Source: Escherichia coli (GTDB taxonomy: Bacteria > Pseudomonadota > Gammaproteobacteria > Enterobacterales > Enterobacteriaceae). Taken from it: 64,000 bases of DNA. The DNA lies in NCBI RefSeq assembly GCF_016026235.1, contig NZ_CP065613.1; one strand, written 5' to 3'. A model generated the notes under the pieces. That model did no database searches. It saw only the letters and a program-made list of their open reading frames with translations, and was not told where the DNA came from. Positions 22,903-48,244 of the stretch are shown one piece after another (the stretch's first letter is position 1; each line of letters opens with the position of its first letter). Made by a program: the position numbers and the translations under genes.

Positions 22903-23029
22903 TGGGGACCTTGTTGGTTTTGTGTTTAACAATATTTATACAAGCACAGCTTTACAGGGGAGACAATGGAAAATTTTTCAGCAAGGGAAAATTGAGGGGT
23001 TGATCACGTTTTGCACTGAATTGCAGGTA

Positions 23030-23170
23030 ACAAAAAACCCCGCCGGAGCGAGGTTTCGTCAGCCGCCTGCGGCTGGTAACCGCAAAGCACACTGTATTAT
23101 GTCAACACTGAAAGTATACCTGTTCCGCGCAGAACGCGCAATTTCGGCACGAATTTTGACGTATTTAGTA
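23030..23170 (-). ncRNA. istR: IstR antitoxin sRNA region (IstR-1/IstR-2); 5' ends approximate
   Basis: Minus-strand hairpin plus U6 terminator near 23032-23053; contains a ~21-nt block (23087-23110) repeated upstream of tisB; sits divergent from a LexA-boxed promoter. Confidence 0.5.
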
Positions 23171-23212
23171 CATAGTTGAGTATCGATCACAGTTTGCGTT
23201 TTGTCCAAAAAT

Positions 23213-23232
23213 TACTGTTTATTTATACAGTA
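23213..23232 (+). promoter_or_regulatory. LexA box with adjacent -10 (TATAAT at 23239-23244), tisAB promoter
   Basis: TACTGTTTATTTATACAGTA matches the LexA consensus CTGT-N8-ACAG. Confidence 0.7.
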
Positions 23233-23466
23233 AACTTCTATAATATCACTGTACGCAATGTGTTATGCGGGGGCCGCATCGTTACCCGGCGCACTAAGTC
23301 CTGGCTGAAACGGGTGGTGCCGTCAGCGCCTTAACCCCGCGTGAGCACACTGTGTTATGTCAACAAGCACAACGTTTCTCCTTGAGATACCGCGTGCACA
23401 ACAGCTGGCAACAGGCAGCGGAAAGGTACGTCAGCTGGCAGTGCTCCTGAACCACAGGAGACGCGT

Positions 23467-23556
23467 ATGAGCCTGGTGGATATCGCCATTCTTATCCTCA
23501 AACTCATTGTTGCAGCACTGCAACTGCTTGATGCTGTTCTGAAATACCTGAAGTAA
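23467..23556 (+). CDS. tisB: SOS-induced type I toxin TisB (29 aa membrane peptide)
   Basis: MSLVDIAILILKLIVAALQLLDAVLKYLK read from the sequence; too short for the ORF track. Confidence 0.85.
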   Translation: MSLVDIAILILKLIVAALQLLDAVLKYLK

Positions 23557-23575
23557 TTCAGATTCAAGTCGCACC

Positions 23576-23606
23576 AAAGGGGAGCGGGTAACCGCTCCCC
23601 TTTTAT
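23576..23606 (+). terminator. intrinsic terminator downstream of tisB
   Basis: Hairpin GGGGAGCGGGTAACCGCTCCCC followed by TTTT. Confidence 0.7.
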
Positions 23607-23686
23607 ATTTAGCGTGCGGGTTGGAGTTGGGGGCTTCTTCTACCAGCAGAATGTTTGCACCTGCGCTGCCTGTGCCCCTCACCCTA

Positions 23687-23787
23687 GCCCTCTCCCCAAA
23701 GGGGCGAGGGGACCGTCCCGTGCAATGTTTAGCTCATTTTCTGAAAGGGAACGGTGGTTTCCCCCTCGCCCTTTCAGGGAGAGGGTT
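23687..23787. repeat. two copies of a ~26-nt hairpin-forming element in inverted orientation
   Basis: GCCCTCTCCCCAAAGGGGCGAGGGGA (23687-23712) versus the reverse complement of TCCCCCTCGCCCTTTCAGGGAGAGGGTT (23760-23787). Confidence 0.5.
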
Positions 23788-23974
23788 ACAGTTCGCACGT
23801 AATCCCTTCCGGCAACATTTATTGCCGCTTTTGTTTACATATTCTGCCGTTTTGCTTTTCGCCATTCCCGGCACATATCTGGCTAACATTCATCAATGTG
23901 ATAGATTCCTCTCCCGCATTTATGGGAATGCGTAGTGACTTATTCTAATTATTTTTATAAAAGCATCCGTGATA

Positions 23975-25159
23975 ATGAAAAGGCATAGAAACGTCAATTT
24001 GTTATTGATGTTGGTATTACTCGTGGCCGTCGGTCAGATGGCGCAAACCATTTATATTCCAGCTATTGCCGATATGGCGCGCGATCTCAACGTCCGTGAA
24101 GGGGCGGTGCAGAGCGTAATGGGCGCTTATCTGCTGACTTACGGTGTCTCGCAGCTGTTTTATGGCCCGATATCCGACCGCGTGGGTCGCCGACCAGTGA
24201 TCCTCGTCGGAATGTCCATTTTTATGCTGGCAACGCTGGTCGCGGTCACGACCTCCAGTTTGACGGTATTGATTGCCGCCAGCGCGATGCAGGGGATGGG
24301 CACCGGCGTTGGCGGCGTAATGGCGCGTACTTTGCCGCGTGATTTATATGAACGGACACAGTTGCGCCATGCTAACAGCCTGTTAAACATGGGGATTCTT
24401 GTTAGTCCGTTGCTCGCACCGCTAATCGGCGGTCTGCTGGATACGATGTGGAACTGGCGCGCCTGTTATCTCTTTTTGTTGGTTCTTTGTGCTGGTGTGA
24501 CCTTCAGTATGGCCCGCTGGATGCCGGAAACGCGTCCGGTCGATGCACCGCGCACGCGCCTGCTTACCAGTTATAAAACGCTTTTCGGTAACGGCGGTTT
24601 TAACTGTTATTTGCTGATGCTGATTGGCGGTCTGGCCGGGATTGCCGCCTTTGAAGCCTGCTCCGGCGTGCTGATGGGCGCGGTGTTAGGGCTGAGCAGT
24701 ATGACGGTCAGTATTTTGTTTATTCTGCCGATTCCGGCGGCATTTTTTGGGGCATGGTTTGCCGGGCGTCCTAATAAACGCTTCTCAACGTTGATGTGGC
24801 AGTCGGTTATCTGCTGCCTGCTGGCTGGCTTGCTGATGTGGATCCCCGACTGGTTTGGCGTGATGAATGTCTGGACGCTGCTTGTTCCCGCCGCGCTGTT
24901 CTTTTTCGGTGCCGGGATGCTGTTTCCGCTGGCGACCAGCGGCGCGATGGAGCCGTTCCCCTTCCTGGCGGGCACGGCTGGCGCGCTGGTCGGCGGTCTG
25001 CAAAACATTGGTTCCGGCGTACTGGCGTCGCTCTCAGCGATGTTGCCGCAAACCGGTCAGGGCAGCCTGGGGTTGTTGATGACCTTAATGGGATTGTTGA
25101 TCGTGCTGTGCTGGCTACCGCTGGCAACGCGGATGTCGCATCAGGGGCAGCCCGTTTAA
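23975..25159 (+). CDS. emrD: multidrug efflux MFS transporter
   Basis: Trimmed to MKRHRNVNLLLM... (394 aa); recognised as EmrD. Confidence 0.9.
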   Translation: MKRHRNVNLLLMLVLLVAVGQMAQTIYIPAIADMARDLNVREGAVQSVMGAYLLTYGVSQLFYGPISDRVGRRPVILVGMSIFMLATLVAVTTSSLTVLIAASAMQGMGTGVGGVMARTLPRDLYERTQLRHANSLLNMGILVSPLLAPLIGGLLDTMWNWRACYLFLLVLCAGVTFSMARWMPETRPVDAPRTRLLTSYKTLFGNGGFNCYLLMLIGGLAGIAAFEACSGVLMGAVLGLSSMTVSILFILPIPAAFFGAWFAGRPNKRFSTLMWQSVICCLLAGLLMWIPDWFGVMNVWTLLVPAALFFFGAGMLFPLATSGAMEPFPFLAGTAGALVGGLQNIGSGVLASLSAMLPQTGQGSLGLLMTLMGLLIVLCWLPLATRMSHQGQPV

Positions 25160-48146: not shown

Positions 48147-48244
48147 GCCGGATGCGGCGTGAACGCCTTATCCGGCCTACAAAAACATGCAAATTCAATA
48201 TATTGCAGGAGTCTCGTAGGCCTGATAAGCGTAGCGCAACAGGC
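48147..48244. repeat. two REP elements in inverted orientation (BIME)
   Basis: GCCGGATGCGGCGTGAACGCCTTATCCGGCCTAC and GTAGGCCTGATAAGCGTAGCGCAACAGGC. Confidence 0.65.

Follow-up and report, generated by a model that had tools for sequence, protein, structure and literature searches.

A BoxC/PIT/TMECO doublet in the tisB-ysdE spacer of Escherichia coli and a possible partnership of its repeat family with DUF559 nuclease genes

The BoxC repeat of Escherichia coli was reportedly described by Bergler (1992) and by Bachellier in the 1990s, and the fabI (envM) locus is presumably the place of its first description. It has been characterized as a 56-bp family with about 32 copies in E. coli (PMC2267715). 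The same repeat is the PIT element of Hoyne, Maher and colleagues (2000) and the triplex motif TMECO, for which 63 loci have been published and 23 K-12 copies tabulated (PMC4666352). Holder et al. (2015) give the family pattern as 5'-CCCTCNCCC N3-6 GGGNGAGGG N3 GGGNGAGGG-3', that is, three blocks separated by 2 loops. Doublets of this family pair a type A unit, in which loop 2 is TTA, with an inverted type B unit, in which loop 2 is CCG (PMC4666352).

Several other systems invite comparison. REP/BIME and REPIN-RAYT sequences are also short, GC-rich, imperfect intergenic palindromes in alternating orientation with conserved linkers, and they are found at the same sites as BoxC, but the BoxC sequence is unrelated to theirs and has three blocks in place of a simple stem. 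A further likeness to REPIN-RAYT is that BoxC-type repeats accompany DUF559 genes much as REPs flank the RAYT genes. The DUF559 enzyme, however, has the PD-(D/E)XK (Vsr-like) nuclease fold and RAYT that of an HUH tyrosine transposase, and any mobilization of the BoxC repeats would be conjectural. Enterobacterial MITEs (ERIC/IRU and similar) share with the element described here a size of approximately 150 nt, terminal inverted repeats, presence/absence polymorphism, and a long hairpin when transcribed, although the present element is a composite with neither a target-site duplication nor a known transposase, and it replaces a REP instead of being cleanly inserted. Free-standing homing endonuclease genes of the Vsr/DUF559 fold group, exemplified by a group I intron enzyme (PMC3424549), resemble the DUF559 genes in being small nuclease genes of the same fold, at varying sites in related genera, and bracketed by repeats. 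The DUF559 case differs from them in having no intron or intein context or known cleavage site, and its repeats vastly outnumber the gene.

Identity of the inverted repeat pair

The window is a 64,000-nt stretch of E. coli DNA (assembly GCF_016026235.1, contig NZ_CP065613.1) in which tisB (23467-23556, plus strand) converges on ysdE (23819-23893, minus strand), with emrD beginning at 23975 on the plus strand. RefSeq annotation of an identical genome, and the translation, give ysdE as a small protein of 24 aa. The initial annotation described, at 23687-23787, 2 GC-rich segments that are near-reverse-complements of each other and internally palindromic. Both quoted segments (26-28-mers) lie at the coordinates it gave, and a repeat search returns them as arms at 23685-23711 and 23762-23788, each 27 nt, 85% complementary, and 50 nt apart. 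The pair itself therefore stands, but its extent was underestimated: a third block, CCCTCACCC, at 23676-23684 falls just outside the start of the described interval, and conserved flanks carry the element to about 23646-23801.

The interpretation also has to be amended. The description as an inverted, GC-rich, palindromic repeat pair is right, but it overlooked that the family has a name, BoxC = PIT = TMECO (PMC4666352, PMC2267715), that the defining trait is three blocks as opposed to a plain hairpin, and that the locus is a strain-variable allele absent from K-12. The feature is very probably a head-to-head doublet of this family, 156 nt in length at 23646-23801, consisting of a complete A-like unit on the minus strand and a truncated B unit on the plus strand, with a 52-nt spacer between them and the usual linkers as flanks, and it is, with the same high confidence, non-coding, non-autonomous, and without a dedicated role here. 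Since the family is known from work of the 1990s, of 2000, and of 2015, this copy is not novel; it is an ordinary member with one truncated unit.

The assignment depends on the following matches. The left unit matches the full family pattern exactly on the minus strand at 23676-23710 and is identical in 35 of 36 positions to K-12 TMECO numbers 7, 11, and 15, from which it differs by a loop 2 of CTA instead of TTA. That loop is neither the canonical TTA of type A nor the CCG of type B, but is one base from TTA. The right unit, at 23763-23785, has the first 2 blocks only and so is a truncated member that fails the full pattern, and it is identical to the first 23 nt of TMECO number 10, which is type B. 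As regards the A+B pairing rule, the left unit at this locus is A-like, and the right unit has a hairpin of B type but has lost its loop 2 and third block. Like published BoxC/PIT/TMECO members, the element has the three-block sequence, is intergenic and multi-copy, forms an inverted doublet, apparently of an A and a B unit, and occupies a strain-variable locus; unlike them, its right unit has no third block, its left loop 2 is CTA, and the locus is absent from K-12. Because K-12 has no element here, the locus lies outside the 23 tabulated K-12 copies, and a look-up of its gene names in the supplement of Holder et al. gave 0 occurrences.

A genome-wide search had been proposed as the way to see whether the segment belongs to a dispersed family, and it does. 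By blastn, matches to the family fall at 72,730 places spread over 5407 of the 5426 complete E. coli genomes; the median genome has 14 such places and the richest 27, and 33 of the total are on plasmids. All paralogues that were inspected are intergenic, as is this copy, bounded by the terminator of tisB and the stop codon of ysdE. Chance palindromy or a diverged REP/BIME element would be the remaining identities, and we give these next to no credence. The window has 2 occurrences of the core pattern CCCTCTCCC-N3-8-GGGMGAGGG, for which 100 shuffles give an expectation of 0, and a chance palindrome would not have thousands of near-identical copies. An occupied REP site, and units of alternating orientation with conserved linkers as in BIMEs, could suggest a REP/BIME relationship, but there is no similarity to the REP consensus (GCCGGATGCGGCG...CCTTATCCGGCCTAC). 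The initial annotation was correct that this is not a REP: the only consensus match in the window is at 48147-48180, and the REP that belongs to this spacer is that of K-12. The match at 48147-48180 is a canonical REP with a perfect consensus and is unrelated to the BoxC doublet. An identity as a known RNA family was rejected as well, as the only Rfam match is at chance level (mir-1275, 19.7 bits versus a gathering score of 71, E = 0.59).

Anatomy of the composite and its likely effect

Proceeding from tisB, the first feature is the intrinsic terminator of that gene at 23576-23613 on the plus strand, where the terminator scan detects a GC-rich stem of 12 bp with a T-rich tail after it. This terminator is conserved in the K-12 and SE11 alleles, and it sits upstream of the repeat element and outside it. 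Alignments to K-12 then place a window-specific filler, GGGCTTCTTCTACCA, at 23631-23645, between the K-12-homologous sequence and the composite; K-12 reads GATGCGATGCTGACGCATCTTATCCGCCCTACC there, and the filler may be the remnant of a K-12-type REP. The composite begins with the tail-side linker of the type A unit, 29 nt on the minus strand at 23646-23674 (CACAGGCAGCGCAGGTGCAAACATTCTGC), which a comparison of 10 BoxC doublets shows to be homologous to the 29-nt linker of tail-to-tail doublets elsewhere. The complete, type-A-like unit follows at 23675-23711 on the minus strand and reads CCCTCGCCC-CTTTG-GGGAGAGGG-CTA-GGGTGAGGG. Its parts in plus-strand coordinates are block 3 at 23676-23684, loop 2 at 23685-23687, block 2 at 23688-23696, loop 1 at 23697-23701, and block 1 at 23702-23710. 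The head-side spacer of about 52 nt (23712-23762) has complementary ends that extend the long hairpin. The truncated type B unit, recognized by a match to the hairpin pattern only, is at 23763-23785 on the plus strand (CCCTCGCCC-TTTCA-GGGAGAGGG), and TTA followed by a truncated tail-side linker, CAGTTCGCACGTA, completes the window-specific segment at 23786-23801 on the same strand. Homology to K-12 resumes at 23802. A small hairpin and T-run (CGGCAACATTTATTGCCG CTTTTGTTT), found by the terminator scan and the allele alignment, overlap the ysdE stop codon at 23810-23827 on the plus strand.

The truncation of the right unit can be delimited by its paralogues. Where this copy has TTA-CAGTTCGCAC after the hairpin, the paralogues have CCG-GGGTGAGGG-TAT-CAGTTCGCAC (continuing as CCGGGGTGAGGG), so the third block has been lost, a difference of approximately 12 nt or one block period. 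Replication slippage between the 2 direct G-blocks would account for a loss of that size.

The 10 doublets compared have a mosaic construction. A 29-nt linker (consensus TAAATGTTCGCACCAGTGCTGGCCTGTTC) is followed by an A unit, a spacer of 52-59 nt, a B unit on the opposite strand, and the linker again. Tail-to-tail doublets, with B, a linker of 18-29 nt, and A, are found at ygfF-gcvP, gldA-yijF, hrpB-mrcB, fepB-entC, and alx-sstT. The loci yiiM-cpxA, rhaD-rhaA, and lldD-trmL and the window have head-to-head doublets, with A, spacer, and B, in which linker sequence is kept on the outer sides; in the window, the linker is full on the left and truncated on the right. The spacer is 52 nt at yiiM-cpxA, at rhaD-rhaA, and in the window, and 59 nt at K-12 lldD-trmL. 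Both arrangements accord with the published A-with-B pairing (PMC4666352).

The folding of the element bears out the structural claims that were made for it. By itself, each arm folds as DNA into a hairpin of 9 bp that contains one internal mismatch, at -7.7 to -8.9 kcal/mol, and folds of the individual arms and of the 141-nt region agree that either 2 hairpins or one long hairpin or cruciform can form. The 141-nt region folds at -67.3 kcal/mol for the plus strand and -71.3 kcal/mol for the minus strand, with z = -4.98 and -4.94, respectively, and none of 200 shuffles is as stable. Within the complete unit, block 1 is competed for by blocks 2 and 3 in ViennaRNA folds, which consider Watson-Crick pairing only. 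The DNA can adopt two 9-bp mismatched hairpins or a single long hairpin or cruciform, and the G-rich strand of the complete unit could fold into an intrastrand purine-motif triplex. Oligonucleotides with one base different from it form stable triplexes in vitro by CD and NMR, and no triplex protection or footprint was detected in vivo (PMC4666352). Because of that in vivo result, the triplex may never form in cells, and because the right unit has no third block, only one of the 2 units is triplex-capable. The likely effect of the element would be local structural instability of the spacer, and not gene regulation.

A different proposal is that the doublet is a functional RNA element, serving either as a bidirectional terminator or insulator that separates the convergent genes tisB and ysdE or, as REPs do, as a 3' hairpin shielding their transcripts from exonucleases. 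The location between convergent transcription units at the site of the K-12 REP, the very stable long hairpin in RNA of either strand, and the exchange of BoxC with REP/BIME alleles at 2 more loci (below) all speak for it. We nonetheless consider it improbable. The terminator scan finds sites at 23576-23603 and 23810-23827 and none at either arm; neither arm is directly followed by a U-run on either strand, on which ground an intrinsic terminator was rejected as an identity. The canonical terminator upstream makes the doublet unneeded for the termination of tisB. The doublet is missing from 72% of E. coli genomes, members of the family have no consistent position or orientation relative to genes (PMC4666352), and PIT elements, in the tests as summarized in PMC4666352, had no promoter or terminator activity and no in vivo effect on polymerases. 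A ysdE transcript reading through past the stop codon would enter the BoxC doublet, and a role as a 3' hairpin, or an effect on the stability of the 3' end of such an RNA, is possible.

The best-supported reading is that of an inert, non-autonomous repeat. It draws on the separate tisB terminator, the lack of a T-run after either arm, the lack of an Rfam match, the 72% of genomes that do without the element, and the negative published assays, with the absence of function inferred from dispensability and from reporter assays made on other copies. The earlier statement that the pair has no assigned function is a fair summary of published knowledge.

Spacer alleles in the E. coli population

The spacer between tisB and ysdE/emrD exists in three alleles that account for 5418 of the 5426 complete E. 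coli genomes sampled. The BoxC doublet is present in 1508, a K-12-type REP in 2849, and 1061 have no tisB/istR. From this split, with 72% of genomes lacking it, the doublet is dispensable. K-12 has at this site a 32-nt REP-like sequence and no BoxC element. The three alleles are collinear again at the small hairpin at 23810-23827, and their breakpoints are near 23802-23810. Carriers of the doublet include SE11 and O111:H8, O121:H19, O169:H41, and O78 strains, which we take to be phylogroups B1/C, and the REP allele is carried by K-12 and O157:H7, which we take to be phylogroups A and E.

The tisB-less allele is of interest in its own right. The istR-tisB locus is wholly missing in those 1061 genomes, for example in the ST131-type ZH193, where approximately 150 nt of unrelated sequence lie between ivbL and ysdE. 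The alignment of window 22980-23806 with positions 1400-1520 of such a sequence (L007) gives a right breakpoint that is the same as that of the BoxC/REP polymorphism. As a separate observation, RefSeq record NZ_CP026085.1 of 4.83 Mb, labelled E. coli DH5alpha, has the BoxC-doublet allele that K-12 lacks, and its label is probably wrong.

Over 601 nt, the majority of carriers share 97.5% identity with the window, and the loop of their right arm is of A type, CCCCTTTGGGG. The B-type loop of the window, CCCTTTCAGGG, is found in about twenty genomes, including O169:H41 strains. Three clustered substitutions separate the window from SE11 and convert the A-type loop to the B-type loop of the paralogues, a patch that looks like gene conversion from a paralogue in the sub-lineage of the window. 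The distribution as a whole fits a single entry of the doublet into the spacer, in the lineage leading to B1/C and at a site where other E. coli carry a REP, followed by vertical descent; we infer this history from the alleles. Identity of 97.5-100% over 1508 genomes could reflect shared ancestry or constraint.

Alternation of this sort is seen at other loci. A BoxC doublet alternates with REP/BIME sequence at yiiM-cpxA, where 161 genomes have the doublet, and at rhaD-rhaA, where 787 do. This agrees with the unusually variable TMECO loci of Holder et al., who found much higher sequence variability between strains there than at control intergenic sites (PMC4666352). A clean MITE insertion was considered and rejected: the inverted ends are present, but there are no flanking direct repeats at three loci, and the doublet takes the place of REP/BIME sequence.

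Such variability raises the question of whether non-B DNA, as triplex, G-quadruplex, or cruciform, makes the locus recombinogenic, with the doublet being kept as a source of adaptive variation near tisB. The published excess of variability would be explained by it, as would the three alleles with breakpoints coinciding near 23802-23810; four G3 tracts with 3-nt loops on the minus strand provide a candidate structure, and a dense patch of ysdE substitutions lies 60-90 nt away in the lineage of the window. On the other hand, the variability may be just the repeats themselves varying or entire spacers being exchanged by homologous replacement, the variable sites are occupied by REP alleles as well, and no triplex was detected in vivo (PMC4666352). 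An adaptive benefit is speculative, and the BoxC allele is stable across its 1508 carriers. We regard this explanation as unlikely, if somewhat less so than a dedicated RNA function, and retain that of an inert repeat. The ysdE patch itself, at 23850-23876, differs from K-12, SE11, and O121 by approximately 8 substitutions within about 25 nt, alters 5 of the 24 YsdE residues (MNVSQICAGNGEKQNGRICKQKRQ versus MNVSQIYARNGELFSGRICKQKRQ), and is limited to the small sub-lineage of the window.

DUF559 nuclease genes and the origin of the repeat family

The three-block sequence is not confined to E. coli. Among the matches listed, there are at least approximately 100 copies in Mitsuaria (Roseateles) chitosanitabida and further copies in a Methylomirabilota MAG and in Candidatus Contendobacter. 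The blocks are identical in these copies, and the loops and flanks are different. The Methylomirabilota MAG (JACPAT01, L014-L021) has exact copies of the TMECO pattern and tail-to-tail doublets of approximately 30 nt, outside Proteobacteria, with an assignment that is provisional as to contamination. The main point of interest is what lies between 2 inverted copies in Mitsuaria, which is a 139-aa ORF that Pfam identifies as a DUF559 protein (E = 1.9 × 10−39). [quoted passage not shown]

E. coli has a single DUF559 gene, ycjD, which adjoins fabI. The end of K-12 ycjD is inside a degenerate type B hairpin, with the last codons, SPSP-stop, encoded by CCCTCTCCCTGA. TMECO number 9 is 153 nt beyond ycjD, and the interval holds a second copy of part of the ycjD 3' end together with another degenerate hairpin (L138 2205-2480, the K-12 fabI-ycjD spacer). 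Viewed from the protein side, independently of the repeats, nearly all homologues of YcjD in Enterobacter, Klebsiella, Kluyvera, Lelliottia, and others have PSPRPSP as their final residues, and this peptide is the translation of CCCTCACCC-CGG-CCCTCTCCC-TGA, a type B unit. PSPxPSP tails are found in 67 of 113 YcjD matches, and with a domain-only query from Mitsuaria, 36 of 118 matches have tails of PHPxPLP or PSPxPSP. Since these tails are the same DNA in different reading frames, it is the DNA that is conserved and not the peptide. The family extends to 24,568 cluster representatives (E up to 0.001); from the best 150 of these 24,568 matching clusters, 59 of 145 diverse representatives have motif-encoded peptides, as compared to 1.05 in shuffled controls.

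Ten further loci were selected solely through homology of the encoded protein; they come from Enterobacter, Klebsiella, Salinisphaera, Pelagibius, a Polyangia MAG, another enterobacterium, and four metagenomic contigs. [quoted passage not shown] Motif density in these loci is 8.2 per kb at the gene ends and 0.27 per kb elsewhere. Counting E. coli, the three Mitsuaria copies, and these 10, every DUF559 locus inspected at the DNA level carries flanking or overlapping three-block repeats, and the association spans Proteobacteria and Myxococcota across all loci examined. No link of DUF559 or ycjD to BoxC-type repeats was found in the literature accessible to search.

Some details of individual loci deserve mention by themselves. 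The variant in the Polyangia contig (L153), a MAG whose assignment is provisional as to contamination, is CCCTCCCC...GGGGAGGG-TTA/CCA-GGGAGGGG. Two unrelated contigs (L150 801-1142 and L152 801-1181) have the DUF559 gene directly upstream of a gene for an error-prone DNA polymerase III alpha subunit (dnaE2-like), and in L152 it is situated between an imuB-like gene and the dnaE2-like gene; this placement may reflect a hot spot for insertion or may be coincidental. In Klebsiella quasipneumoniae (L144 1864-2090), the DUF559 gene is followed downstream by a short tandem array with a period of approximately 70 nt, composed of hairpin-only units (CCCTCTCCCTCAGCGAGAGGG) and ending in a complete type A unit.

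Within E. coli, ycjD is present in 3377 of 5426 complete genomes and absent from B2. Its reported range is limited to phylogroups A, B1, and C and two STs whose ycjD has a 3' end extended by 12 nt (PMC12817139), the length of one block period. BoxC places number 13-25 in K-12-like and B1 records, 11 in O157, and 1-3 in B2, so the phylogroups that have ycjD coincide with those richest in BoxC.

The adjacency of gene and repeats suggests a partnership of the REP/RAYT kind that may explain the origin of the family. BoxC units would then be the terminal repeats of a small selfish element encoding a DUF559 endonuclease (YcjD-like, of the Vsr-fold PD-(D/E)XK type), or DNA partners of that enzyme, and the gene-less singlets and doublets would be non-autonomous derivatives or target sites, as REP/REPIN are to RAYT. 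We judge this account to be evenly poised between right and wrong. Its fuller statement, held a shade more tentatively and falling just short of an even chance, is that a widespread DUF559 selfish element has the three-block repeats as its cognate terminal repeats, as its targets, or as ends that have decayed, with gene-less doublets as its relics, and that the nuclease would spread, homogenize, or destabilize them.

The position of the ycjD end within a type B hairpin with TMECO number 9 close by, the motifs at the ends of the three Mitsuaria genes and of all 10 protein-chosen loci, the motif-encoded tails in different frames, and the excess of motif-encoded peptides over shuffled controls point to such an element. 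So do the location of the gene at different chromosomal sites in different genera and its occurrence in the BoxC-richest phylogroups. The fold is nuclease-like, with a match to PDB ID: 3hrl (E = 1.1 × 10−27), and Vsr and a homing endonuclease belong to the same fold group (PMC3424549).

Other observations weigh against the account. The literature searched gave no biochemical data on YcjD-like enzymes binding, cutting, or mobilizing repeats, and no activity of these proteins on the repeats has been reported. Target-site duplications were not seen, and the orientation of the flanking motifs is not universal, being inverted in L149. O157:H7 holds approximately 11 copies without ycjD. The adjacency, moreover, could also arise if the repeats served as targets for insertion, as expression signals, or as arms for recombination instead of as transposon ends. 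Two derived ideas were examined and discarded. One took the 29-nt doublet linker or the flanks in the window as remnants of the ycjD 3' coding sequence, for which local alignments scored no higher than shuffled sequence (p = 0.05 to 1). The other predicted that B2 keeps a master copy beside ycjD; B2 has no ycjD, and its 1-3 copies are at tusA-zntA, fimH-gntP, and tkt-ypfG, away from any DUF559 gene. The selfish element concerns the origin of the family, and it is compatible with the reading of the present copy as an inert BoxC doublet.

Recognizing BoxC at this locus prevents the pair from being mis-reported as a new regulatory hairpin beside the tisB toxin gene, and the locus documents a clean three-allele polymorphism of the spacer. 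The doublet itself is of low interest as a new feature, and the DUF559 association is the part worth follow-up. For about 30 years BoxC has had neither an origin nor a function assigned to it, and no associated gene had come out of published studies. With DUF559 genes associated with the repeats from E. coli to Myxococcota, and ycjD in the BoxC-rich phylogroups, the question of origin becomes directly testable. If the selfish-element account proves true, it would be a second system of the REP/RAYT type, built on a different enzyme fold.
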